Assembly (NCBI GenBank): GCA_963823665.1 | Contig: CAWGMQ010000004.1 | Coordinates: forward strand, 160,001 to 224,000 | DNA: 64,000 nt | Source of the DNA: an uncultured Planctomycetota bacterium | GTDB lineage: Bacteria; Planctomycetota; Planctomycetia; Isosphaerales; Isosphaeraceae | Reading direction: 5' to 3' | Part shown: positions 35,816 to 53,779 of the stretch, piece by piece | Position numbering within the stretch: position 1 is the first letter of the stretch | How the letters are laid out: each line of letters opens with the position of its first letter | Notes under the pieces: model-generated | What the model was told of the DNA's origin: nothing | Seen by the model: the letters and a program-made list of their open reading frames with translations, nothing else | The model's database searches: none | Program-made: the position numbers and the translations under genes

Positions 35816-35870
35816 GAGTTCGTTTTGTATATTTGACGGTGTTCCTTACGCTGTAAGCATTAAGGGAACG
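35816..35870 (+). repeat. 55-bp direct repeat, copy 1
   Basis: 47/55 identical (manual count) to 36526-36580; last 20 nt CTGTAAGCATTAAGGGAACG identical. Confidence 0.85.
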
Positions 35871-36525: not shown

Positions 36526-36580
36526 GAGTTCGTTTTGTAGATTCGACGATGCTCGTTTGCCTGTAAGCATTAAGGGAACG
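36526..36580 (+). repeat. 55-bp direct repeat, copy 2
   Basis: See 35816-35870. Confidence 0.85.
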
Positions 36581-36901: not shown

Positions 36902-37092
36902 AGGTAACGTGACGGCTGCTCCGCACGGATCGTGATCAAGCGCTCGCCTTCGTCTTTCCGCGCTCCACAGTTACGCAGTTCGATCCGCCGGGTTTGCGTG
37001 TTAAAGAGATGCAGCCCTGCGTCATCTGCGTCATCTGCGTCATTTCTCGACTCTGATTTTCCACATTGGAGCGATCGTTCGGTTGATGCCCG

Positions 37093-37229
37093 CCATATCC
37101 CGAGCCCCGTAGGGGCGACATCGTACGGCCTGGTGGCGTGAGCCCCAGGTCGCGACCAATCGCCCTCCATATCCCGAGCCCCATAGGGGCGACATCGTAC
37201 AGCCTGGTGGCGTGAGCCCCAGGTCGCGA
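37093..37229. repeat. Tandem 74-bp-period REP-like doublet (GCCCCGTAGGGGC / CCTGG..CCAGG hairpins)
   Basis: Copies start at 37093 and 37167. Confidence 0.85.
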
Positions 37230-37247
37230 TTTCGCCCGCGCTGCCGC

Positions 37248-37327: not shown

Positions 37328-37580
37328 GCTGTGGTCTGACGAAAAGGTGCAGCACGAGTTCCGCGACGCAATCGCGCAGGCAAGAACACCAGATGCAAGT
37401 CGATCCATCCGAGCTTCCAAACGCATTTGGATTGAAGAGCGCCGACCATAGCGGTATCGACCCGGAACATTGCATGGAGCCCGACGTGGAACGCGTGGGC
37501 GACGCAGCCTCTGGAGCATTTGGCGACTCAGACGAATTCACGGGAGTTTGGCTGGCAATCGCTTCTCCATACATACTGAC

Positions 37581-37845
37581 ACCAGCTTTACCTTTGCGAC
37601 TTCGCACCTTTGCGTGACCCTCTCTCTCCTTGATATCACTCACTTCAAATACAAATCGCCAGTTCCGATGAGCTCCACGTTGAGTTCATCCTTCCTTTTG
37701 CGCCTTTTTCCCCTTCGCGCCTTTGAGCCCCTCTCCCCGTCTCATCACACAATTCAAACACAAATCGCGCCCCTCCGGGTGTGCTCCGCATTGAGATCAG
37801 CTATCCTTCTGCACCTTTTTCACGTTCGCGCCTTTGCGTGAGCAC
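37581..37845 (+). repeat. Pyrimidine-rich CTT(T/C)GCG..CTTTGCGTGAG repeat array, unit 1
   Basis: Same repeat family at 44442-45030, 50928-51072 and 56985-57095. Confidence 0.8.
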
Positions 37846-37847
37846 CT

Positions 37848-38282
37848 AGGTACACGTCGGCCGAGCTGGCCCGGTTGCTGGCCGTGGAACGGGAGCCGGG
37901 TTGCAAGCTGGCGGTCTCCGTCTTGAATCTCCCGGACCCGGAGGCCGGGCCGAAGCGACGGCCATTGTGCGGGCCGATCCCTTGGAGCTGGTGGCTCCCG
38001 GCCTCCCGGCTCCCGGGGCGGTCTCTCCAGGTTGGCGCCGTCTGTTGGCTCTTGGCGGGTTGGAATCGATCGGCCGAGTTCGAGCTGGTGTTGCATGATC
38101 GGGCCGGGTTCGGCCTCTCCCGGTTCTCGGCCTCCCGCGGCTTGGATACACTGGAGCGGGCCGGGTTGGTTTCTGTTGTGAGACGGCCGGGTCTGTCCCC
38201 GGTCGTGTTGATTCTGGACCCGACGGCTGGGACTGGACGGACACACCCTTTGGAAATCCGAGATGGCGGCGAATTACCATAG
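37848..38282 (+). CDS. Winged-HTH phage/satellite-type protein, copy 1 (5' end replaced by repeat array)
   Basis: GPIPWSWW..ASRLPG.SLQVG..CW, FGLSRFSASRGLDTLERAGLV; three near-identical copies. Confidence 0.6.
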   Translation, partial: RYTSAELARLLAVEREPGCKLAVSVLNLPDPEAGPKRRPLCGPIPWSWWLPASRLPGRSLQVGAVCWLLAGWNRSAEFELVLHDRAGFGLSRFSASRGLDTLERAGLVSVVRRPGLSPVVLILDPTAGTGRTHPLEIRDGGELP

Positions 38283-38335
38283 GAAAAAGGTCATGTGAAA
38301 CGGAAACTTACAAGATTATCTTTGGAGACCCGCCA

Positions 38336-38758
38336 GTGTGGCTGCCGCGAATTCGGTTCAAGCTCCGAAGCTTGATGGTCGCTATAGCCGTGGTTGCGGT
38401 CGCGATCACTGGGGCGCTTTGGGCCTTGAAAATGCGGCGGTTGTCAAAAAACTACGCGAGTGTTGTGCAGCGAGAGAAACAGCTTGAGACGCAATACAAG
38501 CTGTGGCCGGCGCGTTCGAGGCAAAGCGCGGAAGAGTGGGAGCAAAAACGGCCGGATTCGGTAGAGAAGGAATTCTCTTCGTTATCGTCGAAACAGGTGG
38601 CGCTCGGGACAAGCTTAATCTTAGTGTCCACTATTTTCCTATCGATGACACTTTTGGTGGCCTTGATTGCCTACTTACGCAGACCAAAGCGAAAATACTC
38701 GCCCGCCCTAGCCGAGCCCCCCAAACCGAACCAAAGCGGGGAGGCCGGAAGAGTGTAG
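38336..38758 (+). CDS. Variable cargo membrane protein 1 (RFKLRSLM leader + TM)
   Basis: Basic RFxxR leader, two hydrophobic segments; sits between wHTH and MGWKT genes. Confidence 0.65.
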   Translation: MWLPRIRFKLRSLMVAIAVVAVAITGALWALKMRRLSKNYASVVQREKQLETQYKLWPARSRQSAEEWEQKRPDSVEKEFSSLSSKQVALGTSLILVSTIFLSMTLLVALIAYLRRPKRKYSPALAEPPKPNQSGEAGRV

Positions 38759-38765
38759 GTCAAAA

Positions 38766-39068
38766 ATGGGATGGAAAACCATCAACGGACGCCGGTATTA
38801 CTACAAGTCGGAGCGTGAGGGAGGCCGAGTCAAAACCACCTACTTCGGGTCCGGTGAGTCGGGCCTGTTGATCTCGCGAATGGAGGCCATCGATCGGGAG
38901 GAGAAAGACGAATCACGGAATCAGCGTCGGGCCGAGCGGGAGGAATATCGGGCCGAAGAACAGGCCGTTGCGGATTGGTTCGATGACGTCCAGGCCGTGG
39001 CCGATGCGGCGATGATTGCGGCCGGGTTTCACAAGCACAAAGGCCAATGGCGGAGGAGACGGAGATGA
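38766..39068 (+). CDS. Conserved hypothetical 'MGWKTINGRRYYY' protein, copy 1 (intact)
   Basis: Homologues at 45862 and 51868; ATGA overlap with next gene. Confidence 0.75.
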   Translation: MGWKTINGRRYYYKSEREGGRVKTTYFGSGESGLLISRMEAIDREEKDESRNQRRAEREEYRAEEQAVADWFDDVQAVADAAMIAAGFHKHKGQWRRRRR

Positions 39069-39628
39069 ATGACGTTGCTAATGGCGATTCGGGGGCCGTG
39101 GCCGTCTCCAAGCCGAAACCTCCGGCCCCGGGCCAAGAGACTACCGAGCTGTTGAAGCGAGCGACGCGCGGAGAGAAGGGTTGCCTCCCGGAAGTCCGAG
39201 CACTACTCGGCGACGGCGAATATGGAGAAGCGTTGCGAGACTCGAACGGCTCTCAAGCCGAGTGGCTTCGGCGAACCCTCATTGAGAAATCGGCCGGGAA
39301 AAACATTCTCATTCAAGAGGCCGTCACTCAGAAACTCAACACGCTACAGGCCGAGCTGGCCGGACCCAATCCGACGCCGATAGAGCGGTTGCTGGCCGAG
39401 CGGGCCTCCATCTGTTGGTTCATCGTCGATCGATACGAAAACGCTTATGCCAACGCCAACGAATGGACCATCGTCCAATCGGATTTTCAACAACGCAAGA
39501 TCGACAAAGCGCATGCCCCATTCCTCTCGGCTCTCCGGACGTTGGCTCAAGTCCGCAAGCTGGCGTTGCCAACCCTCCAAGTCAACATCGCCAAGAACCA
39601 AGTGAACGTGGCCGGTTCCAACTCATGA
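39065..39628 (+). CDS. Hypothetical helical protein (LAGPNPTPIERLLAER...LQVNIA)
   Basis: Translationally coupled to MGWKT gene; intact ORF. Confidence 0.7.
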   Translation: MNDVANGDSGAVAVSKPKPPAPGQETTELLKRATRGEKGCLPEVRALLGDGEYGEALRDSNGSQAEWLRRTLIEKSAGKNILIQEAVTQKLNTLQAELAGPNPTPIERLLAERASICWFIVDRYENAYANANEWTIVQSDFQQRKIDKAHAPFLSALRTLAQVRKLALPTLQVNIAKNQVNVAGSNS

Positions 39629-39728
39629 AAGAGCCCACACCTCACTCTACCGGGTTGGCATCGACAAGAAGGCGAGTTTCCCGTAAATGTCATCATGGCG
39701 GGTTCCGGTAGACGATGACGTTGGCGAT

Positions 39729-39796
39729 CCGTCCCCGGGGTCAGACCGAGTTTCATCCCCGGGGTCAGACCGTCCCCGGGGTCAGACCGAGTTTCA
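39729..39796. repeat. Triplicated CCCCGGGGTCAGACC motif
   Basis: Three direct copies; region replaces the normal start of the first LRR gene. Confidence 0.75.
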
Positions 39797-39875
39797 AGTG
39801 ATTTGCTTCCCCGTCCCCAAGGTTCAGACCTCGTCGAGTGAATTGGAAGCCGACTTCCGAGGAGGAAACTACCGG

Positions 39876-40598
39876 CAAGCCAAACCCGTCTCCCGTCCCT
39901 GGCGAAGATTCCTGCGCTTCAGCGTGCGGGGGATGATCGTACTTGTGCTGGTGATCGGTGGGTGGCTCGGGTGGATTGTGCGGAGTGCTCGAATCCAGCG
40001 CGAGGCGGTCGCGGCGATTGAGAACGCTGGAGGCCGGGTTGCTTATGACTGGGAGTGGAGCAACGGGAATCATTTTCCAGGAGGAAAACCCTGGGGGCCA
40101 GGATGGCTCGTGGATCTCATCGGACTCGACTACTTCGGGCACGTCACCTTGGTAGTCATCAACTTCTCCCCAAAGGTATCGGTTGCAACGACCGAACAGA
40201 TCGGGCGGCTCACCCGACTCGAGTGTCTGAATCTTACTGGGTCATCCGCTGGCGACGCCGAGCTCGCGCATGTCCAGGCACTGACCAACCTCCGGTTTCT
40301 CCTGCTCGGCGACACCCAGGTCACCGACTCCGGGCTGGTGCATCTAAAGGGGATCGCCAACCTATCCTTGCTTAGCCTCTATCGCACACAAGTCACTGAC
40401 GCAGGGCTGGCCCAACTGAAGGGGCTTACCAACCTGACGGGCCTCAACCTTAACGGCACTCAGGTCACAGACGTAGGGCTCGCGCAACTGAAGGGGCTTA
40501 CCAACCTCAACGTCCTCGCCCTTGATGGCACTCCGGTCACGGATGCAGGGATCTTTGAGCTAAAGCAGACGCCGCGGAGCGTGAGGATCGTCCGTTAA
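39876..40598 (+). CDS. LRR cassette 1: constant leader/TM + N-cap + 5 LRRs (native start lost)
   Basis: QAKPVSRPWRRFLRFSVRG leader, GKPWGPGWLVDLIGLDYFGHV cap, 24-aa LxxLxLxxTxVTDAGLxxL repeats. Confidence 0.8.
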   Translation, partial: QAKPVSRPWRRFLRFSVRGMIVLVLVIGGWLGWIVRSARIQREAVAAIENAGGRVAYDWEWSNGNHFPGGKPWGPGWLVDLIGLDYFGHVTLVVINFSPKVSVATTEQIGRLTRLECLNLTGSSAGDAELAHVQALTNLRFLLLGDTQVTDSGLVHLKGIANLSLLSLYRTQVTDAGLAQLKGLTNLTGLNLNGTQVTDVGLAQLKGLTNLNVLALDGTPVTDAGIFELKQTPRSVRIVR

Positions 40599-40621
40599 TT
40601 TGATGCTCATCCTGCCGGCAG

Positions 40622-40748
40622 GGAACCGTCCCCGTCGCATCGCGAGGAATCGGTCGCGGATCGATGACCCTCCTGGAACGAGCCGCGTGCGGGCCGTTAT
40701 GATAAATCGAGCGAACAGACATCGGTCCTCCGCTCACTACAGGCCGGC
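40622..40748 (+). promoter_or_regulatory. Conserved inter-cassette element A (-35 degenerate, TATGAT at 40698)
   Basis: Homologous to elements at 42675, 43570, 48493, 50197, 55751. Confidence 0.75.
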
Positions 40749-41899
40749 ATGAACGATCAAGCCAACACGGTCCCACGTCCCCGACGAAGATTCCTGCGCT
40801 TCAGCGTTCGGGGGCTGATCGTTCTGGTGCTGGTGATCGGCGGTTGGTCCGGCTGGACTGTGAGGATGCCCGCATTCAGCGCGAGGCGGTGGCGGCGATT
40901 ACGAAAGCCGGAGGCGGAGTTTCGTACTGCTGGGAACGGAAAGACGGCGCAGATATCCGGAGCGGAAAACCTTGGGCGCCGCGGTGGATCGTGGATCGCG
41001 TCGGAGTCGACTACTTCGGTCCCGTTACCAACGCACGTGTGGTCGCCTCCGATGCAACGCTCGCACGGGTTGGACGTCTCACCGAGCTACAGCGTTTGAA
41101 TCTGATTGGTTCTTCCACTAGCGATTCCGGGATGGCACACCTCTCCGGATTGACCAAACTGTCTGTCCTCGACCTGGACGACACTCAGATCACCGATGCC
41201 GGCCTGGCACATCTGAAGGGACTGACTGGCCTCTCCTGCATTGGTGTAGGCGAGACGCAGATCACCGACGCCGGGCTGAGAGGTCTAGAGCCCTTGACCG
41301 AACTCGCGCGGCTCCGCGTCCGCGGGACCAAGATTACCGACACCGGCGTAGGGCATCTGAGGAAATTGACCAAACTTTCCGAACTCGACGTCAGCTACAC
41401 GAAGGTCACCGACGCAGGAATGGCTCATCTGAAGGGGTTGACCAATCTCACGGAACTCAATCTCAGCGGCACTCAGGTCACCGACGCAGGACTTGTCCAT
41501 CTGACCGGGTTGAACAAACTTTCAGACCTGAGCCTCTTTGACGCCGAGATCACCGACGCTGGCCTGGCTCACCTTAGCGGTTTAACTAACCTCAGGAAAC
41601 TCAACCTCGAGGCCACTGGGGTGACGGATCGGGGCTTGGCTCACGTGAACGGGCTCCGCGACCTCTCGAAACTGAACATCAGCTTTACGCATGTCACCGA
41701 CGCGGGATTGGCGCATTTGAAGTGGATGACCAATCTTGAGCGCTTGGACGTCAGCGATACCCGGGTCACCGACGCTGGTCTCGTGCATCTGAAGGGGCTC
41801 AGAAAGCTCTCAGAACTCACTCTTTACGGCACCCGCGTCACCGACGATGGAATAAAACACTTAAAGCAAGCTTTGCCGAGTCTGACGATCACTCGTTGA
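40749..41899 (+). CDS. LRR cassette 2: 11 LRRs (frameshift ~40865)
   Basis: Leader in ORF 40749, cap and 11 repeats in ORF 40844..41899, ALPSLTI C-cap. Confidence 0.85.
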
Positions 41900-42070
41900 T
41901 CCGATGCGCATCTTGCCGGCCTGCATCGCCAGTCTAACTCCTCGACCTTCCATTCGGAGTCTCACCTGGGGGCCGCGCTGGCCTCCAATATGCGAGTCCG
42001 GTGATCATTAGCGTGGGCTGATATACTAACCGAAATGGAGCTACCGACCTACCGCTCGCCGGACGCCGGC

Positions 42071-42655
42071 ATGACCGATCAAGCCAAACCCGTCTCACGC
42101 CCCTGGCGAAGATTCCTGCGCTTCAGCGTGCGGGGACTGATCGTTCTCATGCTTGCAATGGGTGCCGGTCTGGGTTGGCTCGTTCGCGGCGCACGAATCC
42201 AAAGAGAGGCGGTAGCCGCGATCACTAAGGCCGGCGGCACGGTCGTTTATAACTGGAATGAGGATACCTCGCCGTTCAGCCCGGCGGGTAAGCCGTGGGC
42301 GCCGGGCTGGCTCGTCAAATTCATTGGAGTCCACTATTTCGGTCACGTAACGGGCGTCGATTTCTACGACAACGCATCGACCGATGCTGGGCTGGTGCAT
42401 CTAAAGCGGCTAAATAAACTCTCGCGACTGCACCTTGCTGGTACCCAGCTCACCGATGCCGGACTGGTGCACCTGCACGGGCTCACCAATCTTTCCCACC
42501 TCGATCTGAGCTACACCAAGGTCTCGGACGATGGACGGGCGCATCTGAAGCCGTTGAAAAAGCTCTCCCGGCTCGACGTCTTTGGCAATCGAGTCACAGA
42601 CGCTGGAATCAAACAATTGCGGCTGCCTGCACGGAGACCCAGGATCTACTACTGA
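42071..42655 (+). CDS. LRR cassette 3: 3 LRRs
   Basis: MTDQAKPVSRPWRRFLRFSVRG leader; alternative upstream element with GATATACT. Confidence 0.85.
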   Translation: MTDQAKPVSRPWRRFLRFSVRGLIVLMLAMGAGLGWLVRGARIQREAVAAITKAGGTVVYNWNEDTSPFSPAGKPWAPGWLVKFIGVHYFGHVTGVDFYDNASTDAGLVHLKRLNKLSRLHLAGTQLTDAGLVHLHGLTNLSHLDLSYTKVSDDGRAHLKPLKKLSRLDVFGNRVTDAGIKQLRLPARRPRIYY

Positions 42656-42674
42656 GTCGCCGGGAGCTAGCCAC

Positions 42675-42807
42675 CCTGGAATCGTCCCTGTCGCATCGCC
42701 AGGCGGCGAGACGTCGGATCTATTGAGCCTCCTTCGACGACTCGCGTGCAAGCCGTTATGATGAATCGAGCGAACAGACATCGGCCCTCTGCTCACAAGA
42801 GGCTGGC
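42675..42807 (+). promoter_or_regulatory. Conserved inter-cassette element with TCGACG-N17-TATGAT
   Basis: -35 at 42734-42739, -10 at 42757-42762. Confidence 0.75.
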
Positions 42808-43546
42808 ATGAACGATCAAGCCAAATCCGCCTCACGTCCCTGGCGAAGATTCCTGCGCTTCAGCATGCGGGGGATGATCGTCGTTGTGCTGGTGATGGGC
42901 GGCGGGCTGGGATGGCTCGTTCGTCAGCGCCCACATCCAGCGCGACGCTGTGGCGGCGATTCAGCATGCTGGCGGCAACGTCTTATATAGCTGGGAGCGG
43001 AATAATAGAACAGGTACGTCGGGAGGAAAGCCGTGGGCGCCAACTTGGCTCGCGGATCTCATCGGCGTTGACTACTTCGGTCACATCACTTCGGTTTGGT
43101 TCGTTGGGTCCTCGAACACAACCCATTCAGTGCTTGCGCAGGTCGGGTGTCTCACAGGAGCTCACGAGGTGCAATTCAAAGGATGCACCGTTAGCGATGC
43201 CGGGATGGCCCATCTGAGAGGCCTTCGCGGGCTATCTTATCTTGACCTCAGCGGCACTCAAATTACCGACGCCGGGCTGGCCCACTTGAAGGGGTTGACC
43301 AACCTTTCGGGGCTCTTCCTCACGGACACTCACGTTTCCGACGCTGGGTTGGTGCACGTGGAGGGGCTGACCAACCTTCAAATCCTCAGTCTTGCCCACA
43401 GTCAGGTTTCCAATGCCGGTCTGGCGCGTCTGAAGGGGCTAACCAAGCTCAACAAACTCTCGCTCGACGTAAGCCAGGCCACAGACGCTGGTGAACGCGA
43501 GCTCCAGCGGGCTTTGCCGAATCTAAAGGTAAAGGTTTACCCTTGA
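42808..43546 (+). CDS. LRR cassette 4: 5 LRRs (frameshift ~42925)
   Basis: Leader + cap + repeats, ALPNL C-cap. Confidence 0.85.
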
Positions 43547-43569
43547 AATGCTGCCCGTCCAAGCGACAC

Positions 43570-43698
43570 GGAATCGCCCCTGTCGCATCGCCAGCCGTTG
43601 GGACGTCTGATCGTCGACCGTCCTTCGACGAGCCGCATGCGCGCCATTATGATGAATCGAGCGAACAGACATCGGCCCTCCGCTCATAAGACGCCGGC
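43570..43698 (+). promoter_or_regulatory. Conserved inter-cassette element with TCGACG-N17-TATGAT
   Basis: -35 at 43625-43630, -10 at 43648-43653. Confidence 0.75.
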
Positions 43699-44448
43699 AT
43701 GAACGATCAACCCAAACCCGCCTCCCGTCCCTGGCGAAGATTCCTGCGCTTCAGCGTGCGGGGGATGATTGTACTGGTGATCGTGATCGCCGGCTGCCTT
43801 GGATGGATCGTACGTAGCGCCCGCAACCACCGACAGGCCGTCGCGGCAATTATCAAGATGAATGGGGAGGTGGGGTACGTGGACGACTCGCGGACCTCCT
43901 TACAAGCGATGCGTGGCGAGCGTTCTCTCAGGTACCTGATCGGCGACTGGTTGGCTATCAACGACGTTTTCAGCGGCGTCCATGTCCGGCTCACGTTGAA
44001 AGAAGGCATGGACCAGGAACTGGCGCTCGCGCCCGTAGGCGATTTGACAAACCTCCAATCACTGAGTTTTGTGGGCGGCGCCATTCAAGATTCCGCGATC
44101 GAGAAAATCGGGCGGGCGAACAACCTCAAATGGCTCCAAATCCAATCCGCACCGCTCACCCGCGTTGGGTTCCGGCATTTGACGCAGTACAAGAACCTGG
44201 AGCACTTGTTCCTCTACGACATCGACATTCCCGAAGGGGCGTTCGAGCACTTCGGCGCGCTGGCGAATCTGAAAACACTCGAGATGCACCAATGCTGGCG
44301 AGTGGACAAAGGCCTTGCCGAGATGCAAGTACCGCCGCGCCTTGCGACCCTCCGTATCCGTTACGCGCCGCTCTCGGATGCCGGCCTCAAGCACATCGCG
44401 CGGCTGCCGCACCTCACAGAACTTTTCCTGGAAGACGTTCTCGACTGA
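43699..44448 (+). pseudogene. LRR cassette 5: 3'-truncated near-duplicate of 48625..49776
   Basis: Colinear with 48625 copy until GAAGACGTTCTCG, then cut by the repeat array. Confidence 0.85.
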
Positions 44449-45030
44449 ATTCAGCTCGACCTTTGCGACTTCTCGCCTTTGCGTGAGCCCCTTTCTCATC
44501 ACACACTTCAAACACAAATCGCGCCCCTGCTGGTGTGCTCCGCACTGAGTTCACCTTTCCTTTTGCGCCTTTTTCCCCTTCGCGCCTTGCGTGAGCCCCT
44601 CTTTTCTCCCGATCACGCATCCAAGAAAATCACCTTGCCCCGTCGCGCATCGCCGCGACTGAATTCAGCTCGACTTTTGCGACTTCTCGCCTTTGCGTGA
44701 GCCCCTCTCTCATCACACACTTCAAACACAAACCGCGCCCCTGCTGGTGTGCTCCGCACTGAGTTCATCTTTCCGTTTGCGCCTTTTTCCCCTTCGCGCC
44801 TTGCGTGAGCCCCTCTTTTCTCCCGATCACGCACCCAAAAAAATCGCCTTGCACCGTCGCGCATCGCCACGACTGAATTCAGCTCGACCTTTGCGACTTC
44901 GCGCCTTTGCGTGAGCCCCTCTTTTGTTCTCGTCACACACCCCAAAAACAAATCGTGCGCCTTCGCGTGTCCTCCCCATTGACATCGCCTCTCCTTTGCG
45001 CCATGTTCCCCTTCGCGCCTTTGCGTGGAC
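44442..45030 (+). repeat. Pyrimidine-rich repeat array, unit 2, with 214-bp tandem duplication
   Basis: CGACTGAATTCAGCTCGAC starts at 44442, 44656, 44870. Confidence 0.9.
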
Positions 45031-45034
45031 CCCT

Positions 45035-45427
45035 CGGTACACGTCGGCCGAGCTGGCCCGGTTGCTTGCCGTGAAACGTGAGCCGAGTTGCAAGCTGGCG
45101 GTCTCCGTCCCGGCTCCCCCGGACCCGGAGGCCAGGCCGAAGCGCAGGCCGTTGTACGGGCCAATCCCGTCGAGCTGGTCGCCCCCGGCCTCTCGGCTCC
45201 CGGGGAAAACCCTCCAGGTCGGGGCCATCTGTTGGCTCTTGGCGGGTTGGAATCGAACGGCCGCGTTCGAGCTGGCGCTGGAGGATCGGCCCGAGTTCGG
45301 CCTCTCCCGGTTCTCGGCCTCGCGGGGCCTCGATACACTGGAAACGGTTGGATTGGTCTCCAAGGTCCGTCGGCCGGGCCGGTCTCCGATCGTGTTGCTC
45401 CGGGACGCTACGGTGGGAAATTCTTGA
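45035..45427 (+). CDS. Winged-HTH protein, copy 2
   Basis: Homologous to 37848 copy with the same 5' junction GGTACACGTCGGCCGAG. Confidence 0.6.
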   Translation, partial: RYTSAELARLLAVKREPSCKLAVSVPAPPDPEARPKRRPLYGPIPSSWSPPASRLPGKTLQVGAICWLLAGWNRTAAFELALEDRPEFGLSRFSASRGLDTLETVGLVSKVRRPGRSPIVLLRDATVGNS

Positions 45428-45439
45428 CGTCAGAGGCCG

Positions 45440-45808
45440 ATGATGCCGCGAGTTCGATTCCGAGTTCGGACAATCCTGCTCTTCATCGCGGTGGTTGCCG
45501 TCCTACTCGCAATGCCGCGAATCGTCTCCCAGTTGTCGCGCATTCGGCCGTTTTGGCTAGAGTGGGATGGCACGATCCTTTGGTTCGTGGAAGACAGGGT
45601 GACGGGGATAGTATACAGCCACGCGCCCACCGTCGTCTTTCACCATTCAGTTAAGACCGAGGTCCCGCTGCCATCGCCTACAACTCTGCTACGAATTGTT
45701 GCGGCGAGCCTGATCTTGGCATCCGCGTTCGTTTATCGGCGCAAGCTTAAGAACCGTGCGAAGCTCCGAGAGACTGCAACTAACAGCGGTGCTTCAGAAT
45801 CCAATTAA
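45440..45808 (+). CDS. Variable cargo membrane protein 2 (RFRVRTIL leader + TM)
   Basis: Same slot as cargo 1, unrelated body. Confidence 0.65.
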   Translation: MMPRVRFRVRTILLFIAVVAVLLAMPRIVSQLSRIRPFWLEWDGTILWFVEDRVTGIVYSHAPTVVFHHSVKTEVPLPSPTTLLRIVAASLILASAFVYRRKLKNRAKLRETATNSGASESN

Positions 45809-45861
45809 TTGACGGGCAAGCGCAGACCGAAGCGGGAAGGCCGAGAAAGTGTAAGTTAAGA

Positions 45862-46153
45862 ATGGGATGGAAAACCATCAACGGACGCCGGTATTTCTAC
45901 AGGTCGGAGCGAGAGGGAGGCCGAGTCAAAACCACCTATTTTGGGGCCGGTGAGTCGGGCCTGCTGATTCCACTCTTGGAGCGGGAAGAACGGGCCGAGC
46001 TTGAGGAATGTCGGGCCGAGTTCGGCCTCTTCCGTTTCTCGGCCTCCCGTGGCTTGACTATACCGGAGCCGTCCGGTTTGGTCTGCACGGCCCGACCGTC
46101 CGGGACTCTCCCCTGTCGCGAGGATCATTGAAACCACAACGGCGGGCGCTTGA
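45862..46153 (+). pseudogene. MGWKT copy 2 fused at 46011 to 3' fragment of a fourth wHTH copy
   Basis: Switch at TCGGGCCGA microhomology into EFGLFRFSASRGL. Confidence 0.75.
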
Positions 46154-46171
46154 TTGTGCTGGGAGGAAGAT

Positions 46172-46477
46172 TTGGTGCTTTTCCCCCGCTTTCGAATCCA
46201 GTCGATCATGACCGCCATCGCGGCGGTGGCCGTTCTCCTGAGTCTGGTCCACTTCTTGTCGCAACACCCAGTTTTGCTGGGCATTTCTTCTGGATTGCTT
46301 CTCTTGTTCGGGACCAGCGCCTGCATTTTAGTCTGGCCCTTCGCAGTATGGAATTGGTGCCAGCGTTGCTCGAGGTCCGTTCTCATTCCCTTCAAGCCGA
46401 CGACAGGAGGCGAGCATGCGGGTCACCGCGATCTTGCACTTGACGATACCTCTTTTCTGGTACAAACTACCTCCTGA
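46172..46477 (+). CDS. Variable cargo membrane protein 3 (RFRIQSIM leader + TM)
   Basis: GGGAGG RBS; follows wHTH 3' fragment. Confidence 0.6.
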   Translation: MVLFPRFRIQSIMTAIAAVAVLLSLVHFLSQHPVLLGISSGLLLLFGTSACILVWPFAVWNWCQRCSRSVLIPFKPTTGGEHAGHRDLALDDTSFLVQTTS

Positions 46478-46495
46478 TGTGTGCACCTGGAGGTA
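46468..46495. promoter_or_regulatory. Inverted repeat, candidate AbiEi operator
   Basis: TACCTCCTG-N10-CTGGAGGTA directly upstream of abiEi. Confidence 0.5.
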
Positions 46496-46504
46496 ACATG
46501 GACC

Positions 46505-47128
46505 ATGCCAAGTCCGGCCAATCTCTCTGACGATCGGCGACGCCGGGTTGACGCGGCCTTTCGCGAGAGGGGCGGGATAATGCGGATGGCCGAAGCCCTC
46601 CGGGCAGGCGTCCATCGCCGCACGCTGTACGCCCTCCGCGACGCGGGCGTGCTCCAGCAACTCGGCCGCGGGCTCTACCGCCTGGCCGACGCCCCGCCAC
46701 TCTCCCACCCGGACCTCGTCGCGGTCTCGCGACGCGCCCCGAGGGCGATCGTCTGCCTCGTCTCCGCACTCGGTTTTCACGGATTGACCACCCAGGTCGC
46801 ACACGAGGTGTACCTGGCCGTCTCCAGGGACAGCGAGCCGCCCCGCGTCGAATACCCCCCAGTCCGCGTATTCCGGTTCGGCATGCGGGCCTTCAGCGAA
46901 GGGGTCGAGACGCACGACCTGGACGGCGTCCCTGTCCGGATCTACTCACGCGAGAAGACCCTGGCCGACTGTTTCAAATACAGAAACGTGGTTGGGCTCG
47001 ATACCGCGCTCGAGGCGCTACGGCGATATCGCGAAGAGGGCCGGGTCGACGTCGGCGCCATCCTCCGCTACGCCCGCACCTGCCGGGTCGAGAAAGTTAT
47101 TCGCCCGTACCTGGAGGCGATCCTGTGA
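46505..47128 (+). CDS. Type IV TA antitoxin, AbiEi family
   Basis: LGRGLYRL, CLVSALGFHGLTTQ, YSREKTLADCFKYRN motifs. Confidence 0.9.
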   Translation: MPSPANLSDDRRRRVDAAFRERGGIMRMAEALRAGVHRRTLYALRDAGVLQQLGRGLYRLADAPPLSHPDLVAVSRRAPRAIVCLVSALGFHGLTTQVAHEVYLAVSRDSEPPRVEYPPVRVFRFGMRAFSEGVETHDLDGVPVRIYSREKTLADCFKYRNVVGLDTALEALRRYREEGRVDVGAILRYARTCRVEKVIRPYLEAIL

Positions 47129-48036
47129 CTCGGCCGCCGAGGGACGTAGCGGCGTCCGTCCGCGGACGGCTCCGGGACGCGGCCCGGGCCTCGGGCCGCC
47201 CGTTCCAGGAGGTGCTCGAATACTACGCGATGGAGCGCTTCCTGTACCGGTTGGCCCAGTCGCCGCACGCCGGCCGCTTCGTGCTCAAGGGCGCGCTGAT
47301 GTTCCGGGCCTGGGGTGCACCCGAACTCCCGCACGACCCGGGACATTGACTTGCTCGGCCGGCTGGAGAACACCGTCGAAGCGGTCGTGCCGGTGTTGCG
47401 CGACATGTGCGGACTCGTCGTCCAGCCGGACGGGATGGTCTTCGATCCGGCGTCGGTCGGGGCGCCGTGATCAAGGAGGGCGCCGAGTACGCCGGGGTCC
47501 GCGTGACGTTCTTGGGGACCTTGCAGAACGCCCGGGTGGCCATGCAGGTCGATATCGGATTCGGCGACGTGGTGACCCCGGGGCCCGTACCGACCGACTA
47601 CCCGACCCTGCTCGCGCTCCCGGCCCCGCACCTGAACGGCTATCCGCGGGAGACGGTCGTGGCCGAGAAGTTCGAGGCGATGGTCAAGCTCGGACTGGTA
47701 AACAGTCGGATGAAGGACTTCTACGACCTGTGGGTCCTGGCCCGCCGGTTCGACTTCGACGGCCGGACCCTGGTTACGGCAATCGAGCGGACGTTCGCTC
47801 ATCGCAATACCGCGGTCGCCCCCCTCCCGATCGCGCTGACCCCGGCGTTCGCCGACGATCCCGCAAAGCGCTCGCAGTGGAAGGGGTTCGTGCGGAGGAC
47901 CAGACTCGACGACGCGCCGGGGGAACTGGCAGCAGTAACGGGGGAACTCAGAGCGTTCCTTGTTCCAGTGGCGGAGATGGTCGCAGCCGGCACGCCGTTC
48001 GAGCGGAGCTGGAAAGCCCCCGGCCCATGGGCGTGA
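47125..48036 (+). CDS. Type IV TA toxin, AbiEii nucleotidyltransferase (two apparent frameshifts)
   Basis: YAMERFLYRL, FVLKGALM, DID, QVDIGFGD, AEKFEAM, NSRMKDFYDL; GTGA overlap with abiEi. Confidence 0.9.
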
Positions 48037-48057
48037 TGCATGGCTGGACTGAGGGGC

Positions 48058-48224
48058 CGTTGGGCGCGGGTCTCCTGACCCCGCCCTCCTCACCAACCGC
48101 AAGCCTAGTGTCCCGACAATCTTCGATTGAGGACCTGTTGGGCGCGGGTCTACTGACCCCGCCCTCGTCACCGACCGCAGGTCTCCAGGCGGCCGACCCG
48201 CCAATCGAAGATTGTCGCAGCAAC
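48058..48224. repeat. Composite REP-like element (GGCGCGGGTCT..TGACCCCGCC..CCGACCGCAGGTCTCC)
   Basis: Two sub-repeats; closely similar block at 55275-55474. Confidence 0.8.
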
Positions 48225-48226
48225 AG

Positions 48227-48374
48227 CGCTTCTGCGTCGGTCCGGCTCACGGCCTCCCTCGCAATTCTCCAAGCGGTCAACTCGCTGAAAGCCAACAACA
48301 CTGGTCAGACGACAGTGGAGGGAGTCCAGGCCAGGATTGCTCACGAGCGGTTTGTCGAATCGCTTGGGGGGTGA
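48227..48374 (+). pseudogene. 3' fragment ASVRLTASLAILQA...FVESL, possibly TerS-like
   Basis: Homologous fragment at 52785-52925; VRLxA motif like gene 3255. Confidence 0.45.
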
Positions 48375-48492
48375 TCGATTTGCTGACGCTACCGATTCGC
48401 TTACCTGAGTCGGCCGTGCGCACGCAGTTAGATACAATTTTCGGATGTTGGTGCGACAACCTTAACGAACGCCCATCGCGATCGCCAAGCGG

Positions 48493-48624
48493 CCTATAAT
48501 CGCCCCTGTCGTATCGCCAGGCGTTGGGACGCCAAACTACTGACCCTCCTTCGACGAGCCGCATGCCGGCAGTTATGATGAATCGAGCGAACAGACATCG
48601 GTCCGCCGCTCATAAGACGCCCGC
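48493..48624 (+). promoter_or_regulatory. Conserved inter-cassette element with TCGACG-N17-TATGAT
   Basis: -35 at 48551-48556, -10 at 48574-48579. Confidence 0.75.
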
Positions 48625-49776
48625 ATGACCGATCAAGCCAAACCCACCACACGTCCCTGGCGAAGATTCCTGCGCTTCAGCGTGCGGGGGCTGATTGTAC
48701 TGGTGATCGTGATCGCCGGCTGCCTTGGATGGATCGTACGTAGCGCCCGCAACCACCGACAGGCCGTCGCGGCAATTATCAAGATGAATGGGGAGGTGGC
48801 GTACATGGACGACTCGCGGACCTTCTTACAAGCGATGCGCGGCGAGCGTTCTCTGAGGTACCTGATCGGCGACTGGTTGGGTATCAACGACGTTTTCAGC
48901 GGCGTCCATGTCCGGCTCACGTTGAAAGAAGGCACGGACCAGGAACTGGCGCTCGCGCGCGTAGGCGATTTGACAAACCTCCAATCACTGAGTTTTGTCG
49001 GCGGCGCCATTCAAGATTCCGCGATCGAGAAAATCGGGCGGGCGAACAACCTCAAATGGCTCCGGATCCAATCCGCACCGCTCACCCGCGTTGGGTTCCG
49101 GCATTTGGCGCAGTACAAGAACCTGGAGTACTTGTTCCTTTACGACATCGAGATTCCCGAAGGGGCGCTCGAGCACTTCGGCGCGCTGGCGAATCTGAAA
49201 ACACTCGAGATGCACCAATGCTGGCGAGTGGACAAAGGCTTTGCCGAGATGCAAGCACCGCCGCGCCTCGCGACCCTCCGTATCCGTTACGCGCCGCTCT
49301 CGGATGCCGGCCTCAAGCACATCGCGCGGCTGCCGCACCTCACAGAACTTTCCCTGGAAGACGTTCTCGTGACCGACGCCGGAATGGCAAGCCTCCAGGG
49401 CCTGTCCCAGCTCACCGAGCTTCGCCTGAAAAGCGATGATTTGACCGACGCCGCCTTGGCGAGCCTGGCCAGCCTGCGCACCATCCGCCGCCTTTCGATC
49501 GACGTACCAAGAATCACAGACGCAGGTGCCGAGCATCTGGCCCAGCTCACCAACCTCGAGTCGTTAAACTTCACTCGAGAAAGATTGACCGACGCAGGCA
49601 TCATGAAGTTAAAGCCGCTCAAGAAACTAGCCTTGCTGAACATCGGCAGGACAGGAATTACTGAGGACGGCGCCAGCGAACTCCAGAAGGAGTTGCCCAA
49701 GCTCGTGGAGATCACCAGAGGAACGAGAGCTGCCTCAGTTCCAAGACTTCCGCGCGCCAAAACCGCCGGCCGCTAG
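48625..49776 (+). CDS. LRR cassette 6: 10 divergent LRRs, intact
   Basis: Constant leader, different N-cap, 24-aa periodicity, ELPKL C-cap. Confidence 0.88.
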   Translation: MTDQAKPTTRPWRRFLRFSVRGLIVLVIVIAGCLGWIVRSARNHRQAVAAIIKMNGEVAYMDDSRTFLQAMRGERSLRYLIGDWLGINDVFSGVHVRLTLKEGTDQELALARVGDLTNLQSLSFVGGAIQDSAIEKIGRANNLKWLRIQSAPLTRVGFRHLAQYKNLEYLFLYDIEIPEGALEHFGALANLKTLEMHQCWRVDKGFAEMQAPPRLATLRIRYAPLSDAGLKHIARLPHLTELSLEDVLVTDAGMASLQGLSQLTELRLKSDDLTDAALASLASLRTIRRLSIDVPRITDAGAEHLAQLTNLESLNFTRERLTDAGIMKLKPLKKLALLNIGRTGITEDGASELQKELPKLVEITRGTRAASVPRLPRAKTAGR

Positions 49777-49792
49777 CTAGCCACACACGTCC

Positions 49793-49905
49793 CGTGTAGC
49801 AGGCACACTCCGTGTGCCGTCCGCCGAACTTGCCGGTGGGTGGCACTGGCCAGCTCAGTGCTCCAATTCTCGGGCGATTCGCTGTCCCGGAATCGCGAAA
49901 AGCCA
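49793..49905 (+). repeat. ~110-bp REP-like element (TGTAGCAGGCACACTCCGTGTGCC...)
   Basis: Second copy at 52983-53092. Confidence 0.8.
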
Positions 49906-49907
49906 TC

Positions 49908-50038
49908 CTGAGCGCACGCAAGTTACCGACGGGGGGCTGCTTCAACTGCGGAGTCTAACAAAGCTGGAAGAACTTGACCTCACCGTTACGGAAGTTGTTG
50001 ATTTCAAACTGTCAGGCTCTCTGGTGACGGGAATGTAA
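49908..50038 (+). pseudogene. Orphan LRR module (ERTQVTDGGLLQLRSLTKLEELDL)
   Basis: One 24-aa LRR without leader. Confidence 0.65.
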
Positions 50039-50196
50039 GCGAGCATCTTCCTCTTCGTTGCCTCCGTTAGCTTCTGTTCAAGGATTTCGTTGCCACTGAA
50101 TCGGCGATCGCACGAACCCAAATTGGCCAGTGGAATTGGAACAGAAGGCAACCAAGCTAACGAAGAGCAGAGAGTTGATGTGACCCGTCTCGGTCG

Positions 50197-50274
50197 TCCT
50201 TCGACGAGCCCCGTGCGGGCCGTTATGATCAATCGAGCGAACAGACATCGGCCCTCCGCGCAGAAGAGTCCGGC
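50197..50274 (+). promoter_or_regulatory. Promoter half of the inter-cassette element
   Basis: -35 at 50201-50206, -10 at 50224-50229. Confidence 0.75.
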
Positions 50275-50765
50275 ATGAACGATCGAGCGAAACCCGCCGC
50301 CCGTCCCTGGCGAAGATTCCTGCGATTCAGCGTGCGGGGAATGATTTTTCTTGTGGTGGTGATCGGTGGATGGCTTGGCTGGATCGTGCGAAGCGCGCGG
50401 ATTCAGCGCGATGCCGTGGACGCGATCACCAAAGCCGATGGGCAGGTCACATATGACTGGCACTGGACCGGGACCGACCGGAAGGTTGCTCCGACGGGAA
50501 GACCTTGGGCGCCCAGGTGGGTGGTGGATCTCGTTGGAGTTGACTATTTCGGAAACATCAGATGCGTCTTGTTCTACTCACCGTCCAAAGCAACCGGAGC
50601 AACGATCGCACAGGTTGGGCGCCTATCCCAACTACAGGAACTGCATCTCGATGAGTCGTCGCTAGACGACGCCAGCATGGTGCATTTGAAGGGGCTGACC
50701 GAACTCTACTGGTTCAGTCTCAGTGACACTCCGGTCACCGGCGCCGGGCTGGCGCAATTGACGCA
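50275..50765 (+). pseudogene. LRR cassette 7: leader + cap + 2 LRRs, C-cap missing
   Basis: Homology ends after GAGLAQL; ORF then reads through the conserved tail motif (50819-50846) and repeat array. Confidence 0.75.
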
Positions 50766-50927
50766 TATTCACAATTCGCTAGCTTGCTGTCACTGCCTTG
50801 CCCCCCATCGGCGAACGGCCTGGAATCGTCTCCGTCGCATCGCCAGGGTGGACGCGCCCAACTTCCACGCCTCGGTGCAAGCGCGTTCTATGAGCCGACG
50901 TGGCCTCCGGCCAGGCCAATCGCACGC

Positions 50928-51072
50928 AGCCTTACCTTTGCGGCTTCGCGTGAGCCCCTCTTTTGTTCTCCTTGCACGCCCCAAAAACAAATCGTGCGTC
51001 TGCGCGTGTCCTCCCCGTTGAGTTTGCCACTCCCTTTGCGCCTTGTTCCCATTCGCGCCTTTGCGTGAGCCC
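50928..51072 (+). repeat. Pyrimidine-rich repeat array, unit 3
   Basis: Similar to 44885-45030. Confidence 0.8.
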
Positions 51073-51074
51073 CT

Positions 51075-51467
51075 CGGTACACGTCGGCCGAGCTGGCCCG
51101 GTTGCTAACCGTGGAACGGGAGCCGGATTGAAAGCTGGCGATCTCCGTCCCGGCTCTCCCGGACCCGGAGGCCAGGCCGAAGCGCCGGCCGTTGTACGGG
51201 CCGATCCATTGGAGCTGGTGGCTCCCGGCCTCTCTGCTCCCCGGGAAGTCCCTCCAGGTCGGGGCCGTCTGTTGGCTCCTGGTGGGTTGGAATCGATCGG
51301 CGGAGTTCGAGCTGGCGTTGCATGATCGGGCGGAGTTCGGCCTCTCCCGGTTCTCGGCCTGCCGGGGCTTCGATACACTGGAAAACGCCGGGTTGCTCTC
51401 GACCATTGGACGGCCGGGCCGGTGTCCCAAGGTGATGATCGTGGATGCTCACCCAGGAAATGGTTGA
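51075..51467 (+). pseudogene. Winged-HTH copy 3 with in-frame TGA
   Basis: EREPD*KLA where copies 1 and 2 read REP(G/S)CKLA. Confidence 0.7.
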
Positions 51468-51479
51468 CGGGGTACGGCG

Positions 51480-51836
51480 GTGAGGGCATTCCGCTTCCGA
51501 ATCCGGGCGATCATGATCGTGATCGCTACCCTCGCTCTCGCACTTGGCGCGGTTCGATTAGCCCTTCACTACCAGATTGCGAGATTGTCGGTTGAAATCG
51601 GCGAACCCAATTTTGTGATTCTGCATTTGTGGTCGGGTGTCCATCTTACGCAGCGCGGCACGGAGGCAGTCTCGATACAGTTTTCGCTTCAGGAAATGCT
51701 CGTTTGCGTCGGCCTATTTGCCTGCTGCTGCGCGGTACTCTTGCGCCAGTCCAGAACACGCGGCGAAAGGCAAAGCGCTGACTCTGGAGTCATGCCCACA
51801 CGCAGTGTTCCGATAAGGAAATCCCGGGCGCCTTGA
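51480..51836 (+). CDS. Variable cargo membrane protein 4 (RFRIRAIM leader + TM)
   Basis: Same slot between wHTH and MGWKT. Confidence 0.65.
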   Translation: MRAFRFRIRAIMIVIATLALALGAVRLALHYQIARLSVEIGEPNFVILHLWSGVHLTQRGTEAVSIQFSLQEMLVCVGLFACCCAVLLRQSRTRGERQSADSGVMPTRSVPIRKSRAP

Positions 51837-51867
51837 AGCGGAGCTGCCGAGAGAGTGTAGGTTAAAA

Positions 51868-52125
51868 ATGGGATGGAAAACCATCAACGGCCGTCGCTAT
51901 TGCTACAAGTCCGCTACCGCGGCAAACGGCTGATTTCGTCGGGGGATGACGTTGCGTGTTCGCTTCCGAATCCGGACGATCATGCTCGTGGTCGCGGCGA
52001 CGGCGGTCATGTTGGGTCTATGACTACAAGTCGGAGCCCGAGGGAGGCCGAGTCTATACCGCCTTCTTCGGCGCGGGTGAGTCGGGCCCGTTGATTTCAC
52101 TCCTGGGGCGGGAGCATCGGGCTTG
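51868..52125 (+). pseudogene. MGWKT copy 3 interrupted by a ~120-bp insert
   Basis: Insert flanked by direct repeat CTACAAGTC; encodes MTLRVRFRIRTIMLVVAATAVMLGL* (51946-52023). Confidence 0.75.
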
Positions 52126-52139
52126 GAGCCACTACGCGC

Positions 52140-52496
52140 TCAACCCTTCTTACCTGCCTGCCGCTTTTGTTTGGTAGCAGGTGCGGCCTTCGCGGATCGA
52201 GTCGGCGCTACTTTCTTCGACGGAGCTTTCTTGACCGAAAGCGCAGCAGTTTTCTTCTTCGCCGCCACCTTCTTGGTTTTGGAAGCCTGCGCCATCGCCT
52301 TCGGGGCAGGTTTCGACGTCTTGCCCTGCACGGCTTTGGAAGAAGCCTTCGCGCCTTTGGGTGTGCCGCGTGTCGGCATCATATCCCCCACCGCGTGCAT
52401 GGCTTTGGACCCAGCGTTGATCACGACTTCTGCCGCCGACGTCGCCGCATCGCCAATCCGCTCAAGCACGCCTTTGGATTTCTTTTTGCTCAGCAT
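52140..52496 (-). CDS. Lys/Ala-rich histone H1-like protein
   Basis: Very basic K/A/S-rich low-complexity tail. Confidence 0.6.
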   Translation of the reverse strand: MLSKKKSKGVLERIGDAATSAAEVVINAGSKAMHAVGDMMPTRGTPKGAKASSKAVQGKTSKPAPKAMAQASKTKKVAAKKKTAALSVKKAPSKKVAPTRSAKAAPATKQKRQAGKKG

Positions 52497-52736
52497 CAAA
52501 CGCTCCCTGCGTGGTTAGGCAGTGTGTCAACTGTCCCTTCTTCAAGCGACACACAGCATATTCTAGGCTTCGGTCCCCGCGCTTCCTATTCCTTTCGATG
52601 GAATTGCGGGACGATGAGCGACCCCGCCCGGCGGCCGGAGCGACTCCAACCCGCCGCGCCGACACGTGTGTCACTCCGCGATTACAATCCTTGATGTGAG
52701 CGCGACGAACCGTTGACGTCCCTGGGAACGCGGCTG

Positions 52737-52925
52737 ATGTCGCCTATTCGCTTCCGAATCCGGTCGATCATGATCGCCAACTAGCGTCGCCGCGTCCGTC
52801 CGGCTCCGTGCCTCCCTGGCAGATTCTCCAAGCGGCCAACGCCCTGAAGGCCGACGACGCGGGCCCGACAACGGCGGAGGGAGTTGAAGCCGGGTTGGAT
52901 CACAAGCGATTCATTGAATCACTAA
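52737..52925 (+). pseudogene. Leader fragment MSPIRFRIRSIMIA joined to second copy of the VRLxASL fragment
   Basis: 52785-52925 homologous to 48227-48365. Confidence 0.55.
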
Positions 52926-53200
52926 ATAGCATTGCACGATCATGCGACTCAGGTGGGCGGCACTAGCTTCGCCCGTGGTCCGGTGTAGCAGGCACACTCC
53001 GTGTGCCGTCCGCCGAGGTTGTCGGTGGGTGGCACTGGCTGTGCCAGTGCTCCATGCCCGGGCAAATCGCCGTCCCGGAATCGCGAATAGCCACTTAGGC
53101 GGACGATCCGTCGGTCCAAACGCGTTTTTTGGTATGATCGCAGTCGCAGTAGGCATCCAGCCAACGCCTTCGACACGTCCCTCTCTCAGGAGCTTCAACG

Positions 53201-53617
53201 ATGCGTCCGCTTGTACGAGCGCTGTCGTGCAATCTGGTCGCTTTGGTCCTGCTCTGGCCGTCGTCAGCATCCGCGACGACGATCGACTGGATGACTTTCG
53301 AGGAGTTGGTGCTCGGGGCAGATTTCGTCGGCATCGTCGAGTGCGATCGAGCGGGCGGTGTCGTTGCCGGATACTCGGTGCTCGAGTCGTGGAAAGGGCC
53401 CAGGGCCGGTACTCACATTACTATTCGTGTCGCGGTGAACTACTGGGAGCCCCAGTTCCCGATCACCCTCTGCGGCGAGCGATACTTTGTGACGGCGTTC
53501 AAGCAGGCTCCGTTCCCATGGCGAGAGTCCCACACCGCAACTTGCGGAATCGGGTGCTCGTTCTGCTCTCGAACTCAGCTCATGCAAGCGGCGCCCCACG
53601 GCCGGAGAAAACTATGA
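53201..53617 (+). CDS. Secreted hypothetical protein, probably truncated
   Basis: AGGAG RBS, signal peptide ending ASA, FEELVLGADFVG motif. Confidence 0.5.
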   Translation: MRPLVRALSCNLVALVLLWPSSASATTIDWMTFEELVLGADFVGIVECDRAGGVVAGYSVLESWKGPRAGTHITIRVAVNYWEPQFPITLCGERYFVTAFKQAPFPWRESHTATCGIGCSFCSRTQLMQAAPHGRRKL

Positions 53618-53779
53618 ACTCAGCGAATTCGTTCGAGTCTCTCCTGAGCTGGTGGAAAACACACGGCGACAAGCTGGTCCTCGATGACCCATGGCTGGCG
53701 ATCTTGGAGAAACAGAAGATCGATTGATCGCGCCCGGAAACACGGCAACATATCGACGCCGCACCCACATGAGATCGCC

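Follow-up and report, generated by a model that had tools for sequence, protein, structure and literature searches.

Versions of one small predicted membrane-protein gene, likely swapped within the gene, in satellite-like element remnants of an Isosphaeraceae genome

Pipolins are integrative, polymerase-coding elements that carry defence cargo and a primer-independent PolB. T4 Imm, SieA and TrbK are small inner-membrane proteins, encoded on mobile elements, that act in superinfection or entry exclusion. In the P4 and P2 hotspots, as described in the available part of PMC13586616, variable cargo lies between core genes, swaps rapidly and forms recombination chimeras, and the P4 slot was empty in 3/3085 cases. 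The available part of a preprint on tycheposons (bioRxiv 10.1101/2020.12.28.424599) describes tRNA islands that grow from element remnants. Here we analyzed an array of small membrane-protein genes in a 64,000-nucleotide stretch (hereafter the window; G000:C4:160001-224000) of the 16.5-Mb genome G000 from an uncultured planctomycete of the Isosphaeraceae. The whole array lies in a ~21-kb island behind a tRNA-Arg(ACG), and the island borders are syntenic with the same-genus genome G001, with ABC transporter genes upstream and Uma2 downstream, at 87-91% identity. We lean towards the view that backbone-less satellite-like remnants keep versions of one swapped membrane gene in this array, perhaps for variable phage exclusion.

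The array is built around a slot between a winged helix-turn-helix (wHTH) gene, W, and the MGWKT gene, M. We refer to the gene in this slot as the cargo and to a 193-aa gene as Q. Three W-cargo-M units were found, at 37858-39068 (A), 45045-46010 (B) and 51085-52100 (D), with a fourth cargo (C) behind a W fragment (Table 1). As a preliminary description of the sequence had reported, each slot holds a different small membrane protein and the right-edge motif recurs in every unit. The four cargos each combine a basic leader with two predicted transmembrane (TM) helices; by hydropathy prediction, the loops between the helices measure ~62, 51, 4 and 40 residues in A, B, C and D. The flanks had been called near-identical, which proved too strong: the W copies of the units are 83-86% identical, and identity to the right flank of A is 89% for that of B and 87% for that of D. 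The 5' part of W is missing in all three units, the W of unit B ends at its normal stop, and M is complete in unit A only. All four cargos keep open frames while neighboring W and M are truncated. Two leader-only stubs (51912-52019 and 52683-52779) had been overlooked. Contigs from short reads (four low-depth runs from two studies, with one run possibly from the source sample) matched array pieces without differences, including the unit A repeat-W junction, the junction between the W end and cargo A, the cargo B body and the unit D W. Because of these exact matches at junctions, the pieces concerned are not assembly artefacts, although no single contig piece covers the whole array. No joint indicating live switching was found in the low-depth DNA contigs of those runs, whose depth is too low for this to weigh either way. 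Among the sequencing runs listed as containing the array, none was of RNA.

Relatives carry the parent of these units as a tRNA-integrated element of 8-10 kb. M was found in 15 of 41 related genomes, with 361 homologues returned, and W was found in 23 of 121 genomes of the family. In 10 fetched loci, W stands in one run with genes for an integrase, a 248-aa protein and a family A DNA polymerase (PolA; DNA_pol_A / PHROG 17), usually together with DUF1580 (Pfam); PolA is present in all 10 complete loci. The intact order, between attachment (att) repeats, is integrase, DUF1580, 248-aa gene, family A polymerase, double wHTH gene, slot, M, Q and a helix-turn-helix (HTH) gene, and W corresponds to the second domain of the ~230-aa double wHTH protein. 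W is followed by the slot, M, Q and the HTH gene in L112, L057 and L045, and by different genes in other loci, such as a terminase small subunit (TerS) gene in L131 (PHROG 51, E 1e-19) with a close homologue in L132. HTH proteins of the M-Q-HTH type matched a TerS PHROG in one of six cases, and weakly (best E 5e-4). In the complete loci L112, L113, L136, L138 and L141, a second copy of the tRNA 3' end lies at a distance of 8.0-9.6 kb. A 6.4-kb copy in G071 lacks integrase and PolA and is still flanked by att repeats, with a leucine-rich repeat (LRR) gene after its HTH gene. In the window, no integrase, PolA, attR or second tRNA 3' end was found. Since a search of G000 with the element PolA returned one 26% host-type match and nothing beyond, and since the integrase-like genes of G000 are located elsewhere in the genome, the window units are non-autonomous remnants of an element related in type to phage-inducible chromosomal islands (PICIs) and tycheposons, and not to P4.

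Like the P4 and P2 hotspots in the available part of the source cited above, the slot belongs to a small integrative element, lies between conserved core genes and holds variable cargo; the proposed swapping and recombination chimeras would be further likenesses. The comparison with P4-like satellites drawn in the preliminary description is not supported for the parent: the replication gene is a family A polymerase instead of an Alpha primase-helicase, and no P4 core gene was seen. Unlike in P4, the slot is often empty (8/36, against 3/3085 in the available text), exchange appears to occur within one gene family, and cassettes persist as backbone-free arrays. With PICI-like elements and tycheposons, as far as the accessible text describes them, the element has in common a tyrosine integrase, a tRNA target with att repeats, a replication module and remnants behind tRNAs, and TerS is clear in the sister element L131; the integrase and att repeats occur in the relatives and not in the window. 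In contrast to tycheposons, the host is a planctomycete, the core consists of PolA, the double wHTH gene and M-Q-HTH, and a repeat-bounded module appears to have duplicated locally, with M-to-W fusions as inter-cassette linkers. Pipolins are likewise integrative and polymerase-coding, whereas the polymerase here belongs to family A. Similar to T4 Imm, SieA and TrbK, the cargos are small predicted inner-membrane proteins on a mobile element, with no significant homology to them. Polyimmunity loci, in the available part of PMC3482391, also consist of tandem, co-oriented, strain-variable small genes that include LRR proteins; unlike those loci, the array contains no known immunity family and is interspersed with toxin-antitoxin (TA) modules (AbiEii, DarT) and element remnants.

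Scans of Pfam, PHROGs, NCBIfam and PADLOC assigned no family to M, Q or the cargos. Among the scanned core proteins, none matched the Psu, Delta or Sid capsid-hijack PHROGs, and M, Q and the 248-aa gene were left without a family. A fold search with M gave no match (best viral E 0.4; best Z 5.2 in a wide PDB search, from a helix only), an Atlas search returned unnamed clusters only, and neither M nor the right-flank pattern was matched in viral contigs. The literature searched, supplements being outside its scope, contained no description of the element or the cargo family, a search on DUF1580 found no paper, and the available parts of PMC3482391, PMC8567305 and PMC11032199 do not describe the system. 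Complete tRNA-integrated elements lie at L112, L113, L131-L133, L136, L138, L140 and L141, with variable genes at several positions. At L060:1478-2200, an AbiU2-like, weakly HEPN protein (Pfam E 0.014) is encoded between a duplicated M start and a full M, which marks a second insertion point. Two older M-Q copies stand beside a tRNA-Met at G000:C8:360214-364056 (L012), with two att-like repeats and no W match.

A census of the slot was compiled from W-to-M intervals with both flanks within 2.5 kb, excluding W ends without a following M. Of 36 slots cataloged in this way, as the preliminary description had proposed, 21 contained a leader-type gene, in keeping with a cargo hotspot, and 8 were empty (27-109 nt), which qualifies it; 2 held large unrelated proteins and 5 had no clear open reading frame (ORF). 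One of the two large proteins (G071) matched a PADLOC endonuclease effector (E 2e-19), and the other was unmatched. Leader-type cargos were found in G000, G001, G008, G068, G069, G071 and three short metagenome contigs. In the empty alleles, the W frame ends in ...QSG.. or ...KRG..RGVG, the same two tails that many cargos carry; the cargo gene sits within the 3' end of W, and its usual tail consists of the old final codons of W. Because the W stop, spacer and leader are homologous at the DNA level in 24 units, the left junction lies inside the cargo gene. From these sequences, we infer that a leader-TM gene was inserted once into the W 3' end. The leader is a broader planctomycete signature: when 150 of 405 candidates were scored, G000 had at least 54 matches, of which 15 fall in the three arrays. 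A cassette-borne promoter in the W end could not be established: a -10-like hexamer was found in 9 of the 24 units with a leader and in one of the 8 empty slots, and promoter counts were at shuffle level. A pilin-type leader was rejected on the absence of an N_methyl match in the Pfam scan, and the leader presumably also lacks the pilin G/F..E pattern.

Identity between copies changes sharply at the leader or first helix. G001 units 23902 and 40208 share 77-97% identity between -150 and +60 nt, which falls to 30-50% beyond that point (shuffled bodies, 40 +/- 9%). Window unit B and G001 unit 25645 show high identity to +60, low identity through the body and 77-87% in the right flank. The reverse pattern was observed for the DDPG cargo, in which the G000 C7 and G001 copies have 42-76% identity upstream and 77-100% from the ATG onward, with a synonymous divergence (dS) of 0.11, and lie at different tRNA loci. 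One cargo keeps 85% identity between copies in different species and at different tRNA loci, whereas the left flanks of these copies are 52% identical. In two G000/G001 pairs, cargo dS was 0.11-0.12, compared to 0.36-0.49 for neighboring housekeeping genes. Double-leader fusions and the leader-only stubs place more crossovers at the leader, and the junctions observed fall in gene homology and microhomology. Because identity breaks at the leader and bodies are decoupled from flanks, the middle of the cargo was likely replaced by recombinational swapping within the gene. Together with the tRNA-integrated parent and TerS in sister elements, this decoupling agrees with the exchangeable cargo hotspot that had been proposed.

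To what extent the cargos are related was assessed with 38 bodies from which leader and tail had been removed. These fell into classes common to several genomes, distinguished by a predicted periplasmic loop that is short, beta-hairpin or helical. The 107 two-helix members have bimodal loop lengths (47 short, 54 long), with a median long-loop identity of 16%, and 81 of 134 bodies were linked into one component. Cargo B homologues, at 58-73% identity, occur in 4 other metagenome clusters, three of which end in the slot tail, and the cargo B class profile returned 137 clusters at the 50% identity level, some matching by the leader only. With low confidence (cargo B: pLDDT 72, pTM 0.33), the long loop was modeled as beta strands flanked by the two helices. 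With close relatives excluded, the long-loop profile was weakly matched by the loops of D (5/1000 shuffles scored as high) and B (23/1000) and was not matched by that of A (719/1000). Cargo C belongs to the short-loop class, with relatives in G001 and G068. Profile scores for TM2 and the tail were set aside as homology evidence, since shuffles ignore the hydrophobic-then-basic order. Cargo A has a single homologue at 85% identity, its body was found in 0 of 120 other family genomes, and no chromosomal donor for it was detected in G000 or those 120 genomes. The bodies, first described as unrelated, are thus not all so: A does not match the long-loop profile, B and D match it weakly, and C falls in the short-loop class. 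Most cargos appear to be diverged members of one homologous family swapped within the gene, which likewise qualifies the first description. Several truncated cargos were found in G000 and G001.

The end of an LRR gene and a repeat cluster precede each of units A, B and D. All three units start at one junction of a repetitive extragenic palindromic (REP)-like repeat with W, which was found in 0 of 22 other W copies. Because this junction is private to A, B and D, the comparison suggests that a W-to-LRR module bounded by repeats was duplicated locally and that its cargo was then replaced. M-to-W fusions occur once in the window and four times in G001, with two junction types. A dedicated recombination site at these fusions was rejected, as the longest common M/W word of 10 nt was matched by 172/1000 codon shuffles. 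The syntenic G001 array holds at least 10 leader-type cargos, one with a clear window counterpart, and also DarT/DarG (L107:6976-8569). Two related ~190-aa proteins, without a PADLOC match, follow M fragments in that array (L107:10339-10926 and L107:14353-14913).

We consider it fairly probable that an ancestral element, gene gain in W, swapping, and local duplication with fusions jointly account for the array. The ancestor, as comparison with intact relatives shows, would be a tRNA-integrating element with an often empty W-to-M slot. One lineage would then have acquired the leader-TM gene, with the final codons of W becoming its tail, and crossovers on the left in W, leader or TM1 and on the right in the tail or M would have replaced the loop-coding middle; the sequence comparisons argue strongly for both steps, and also for loop classes thereby traveling between flanks, loci and species. 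Local duplication of the repeat-bounded module, with microhomology deletions fusing M to the next W, would have packed the cargos. As a guess from context, the proteins might display their variable periplasmic loop to block phage DNA entry. We tentatively favor a role for the cargos as putative phage superinfection or entry exclusion proteins. We do so because the parent is satellite-like, because a fixed inner-membrane scaffold is predicted to carry a variable periplasmic loop, and because defence-type genes lie in or near the slot: AbiE in the window, DarT/DarG in G001, the endonuclease-effector-like gene in the G071 slot, and a TIR gene in L057.

Several observations weigh against these proposals. 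Leader-type cargo was present in 0 of 10 complete elements, so a mobile donor was not seen, and 39 of the 54 leader matches in G000 (among the candidates scored) lie outside the three arrays. The promoter-like site present in 9 of 24 leader units is absent from units A, B and D. Resolution of the left-flank tree was poor, with good support for 2 of 19 branches, and body classes showed some clustering on this tree (12 changes; shuffled mean 14.5, with 8/200 shuffles as low). In the two youngest cargo pairs, the ratio of nonsynonymous to synonymous divergence (dN/dS) was 1.3 and 1.6, from few codons, which decay fits too. With regard to function, PADLOC matched 0 of 4 window cargos, a fold search with the weak cargo B model returned no match, and the TrbK-alt match of cargo A was below threshold (22.4 bits, cut-off 33) and covered only residues 14-52, the TM1 region. 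AbiEii is frameshifted in the window and was not found beside AbiEi in G001.

Alternative explanations differ in how they account for the same features. Serial integration, in which whole elements entered at the tRNA in turn, each with its own cargo, and later lost their backbones, is unlikely as a full account. Such growth is described in the available part of the tycheposon preprint (bioRxiv 2020.12.28.424599), and it is consistent with leader-type arrays of G000, G001 and G068 that follow tRNAs wherever a tRNA lies within the fetched DNA, with the two arm copies behind the window tRNA, and with the same cargo at different tRNA loci in G000 and G001. However, the left junction is private to A, B and D, the window lacks an integrase, PolA and a second tRNA 3' end, and breakpoints within the cargo gene are left unexplained. 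Because every array in G000 lies behind a tRNA and the one on C7 begins just past an attR-like repeat, serial integration probably contributed as well, and it could well represent the initial stage of the favored model instead of an alternative to it. We regard as quite unlikely a polyimmunity-like locus, in which membrane and LRR proteins would neutralize membrane-acting or periplasmic toxins of competitors. No Imm family was matched in Pfam or NCBIfam, the arrays are broken up by TA toxins and element remnants, and the host element is satellite-like, although the genes are tandem, same-strand, small and strain-variable, four LRR genes each have their own sigma70-like site, and immunity types in the available part of PMC3482391 include LRR and two-helix CdiI-type proteins.

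Birth and death alone, in which one inserted gene was duplicated and its loop diverged fast without swapping, would fit the single component that holds most bodies (81/134) and a cargo dN/dS (0.32-1.56) above that of the intact-element backbone (0.23-0.33). It is nevertheless very unlikely: identity changes in steps that run both ways, one example being a young body (dS 0.11) whose left flanks are divergent, and crossovers at the leader are seen in stubs and double-leader fusions. Least probable is that the arrays are neutral debris, recombination scars whose cargos are functionless today. The four window cargos keep their frames and two helices amid truncated W and M, dN/dS was 0.32-0.64 in 6 of 8 pairs (few codons), and cargo B has its homologues in other metagenome clusters, against which stand the stubs, the truncated G000 and G001 cargos, the broken AbiEii and a dN/dS of at least 1 in 2 of 8 pairs. 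Beyond the preferred reading of swapped cargo in element remnants, we also considered a bolder one, which is doubtful: Isosphaeraceae with large genomes may have turned a satellite hotspot into a domesticated, recombinase-free cassette system that provides an immune-like loop repertoire. As part of this proposal, fragments of two dead backbone genes and the conserved leader would serve as homology arms for gathering, stacking and reshuffling variable periplasmic loops on a fixed two-helix scaffold, beside self-promoted LRR cassettes.

Table 1. Features of the array and its island (window positions)
Feature	Position	Strand	Remarks
tRNA-Arg(ACG), island anchor	35683-35757	+	Same tRNA heads G001 syntenic array and G068 array
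tRNA-proximal arm sequence, two copies (35816-35870, 36526-36580)	35816-36580	+	Single copy after G001 tRNA
REP-like palindromic repeat cluster	37575-37850	+	Cuts off 5' part of unit A W gene
W, unit A	37858-38282	+	3' part of ~230-aa double winged-HTH gene, 5' half gone
Cargo A, 140 aa	38336-38758	+	Leader-TM1, charged 62-65 aa loop (likely helical), TM2, basic tail with W-derived final codons
Conserved right flank	38734-38765	+	Ancestral final codons of W and M ribosome-binding region
M (MGWKT), 100 aa, intact	38766-39068	+	Predicted three-strand sheet, long helix, hairpin; no known family
Q, 193 aa	39047-39628	+	Conserved element gene, no family assigned
Five TM-anchored LRR genes	39687-44448	+	Final one interrupted by repeat cluster
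REP-like repeat cluster ahead of unit B	44444-45030	+	
W, unit B	45045-45427	+	5'-truncated at junction common to A and D
Cargo B, 122 aa	45440-45808	+	Beta-hairpin loop class
Right flank and M 5' part	45830-46153	+	In-frame fusion to W 3' part at ~10-nt microhomology (near 46010)
Cargo C, 101 aa	46172-46477	+	Short-loop class; G001 counterpart, dS 0.12
AbiEi antitoxin and AbiEii toxin	46481-48036	+	AbiEi intact; AbiEii in frameshifted pieces
3' remnant of the element's terminal HTH gene	48237-48374	+	
Two LRR genes	48625-50780	+	48625 is a recent duplicate of 43699 (dS 0.04)
REP-like repeat cluster ahead of unit D	50916-51070	+	
W, unit D	51085-51467	+	5'-truncated, two in-frame TGA
Cargo D, 118 aa	51480-51836	+	Distant beta-hairpin class member
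Right flank and truncated M	51836-52100	+	Split by 121-bp W-end and leader stub (51912-52032) with 9-nt duplication
W-end and leader stub joined to HTH 3' remnant	52659-52930	+	Sigma70-like site 52659-52688
More LRR genes, then terminal repeat copy at island end	53780-57055	+	

Other features of the window were noted. The TM-anchored LRR genes (39687-56842) have a ~150-nt upstream element in common, in 11 copies, four of which contain the same sigma70-like site; there are 64 leader matches in G000, many in clusters, and these genes resemble another cassette family, a self-promoted one. An intact AbiEi is present in both genomes (46481-48036 in the window; L108:773-1417 in G001), and the AbiEii frameshifts could be long-read errors. 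A lysine/alanine-rich histone-like ORF of 118 aa lies at 52140-52499 (-) and is 89% conserved at the same position in G001. Several further types of REP-like repeat occur at 37090-37230, 48050-48220, 49790-49850, 52980-53060 and 54270-54300, and some of them are abundant in contigs from metagenomes. Just before the tRNA, 30005-35355 (-) holds what its sequence suggests is a gliding-motility-type ABC transporter cluster (ATPase, permease fusion, accessory gene), and 78-1277 contains seven copies of a coding repeat (ELW..DGT type) at ~140-nt spacing, probably from a repeat surface protein.

Collectively, this analysis catalogs more than 100 divergent proteins that are candidates for exclusion or immunity, from a phylum with barely known anti-phage biology, and a slot whose defined empty and filled states lend themselves to clean tests. 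Also described is a planctomycete element, PolA-coding, tRNA-integrated and satellite-like, for which we found no account in the literature searched. The arrays show a host keeping and, likely, reshuffling the variable cargo of a dead element, with exchange within the gene at a fixed leader.

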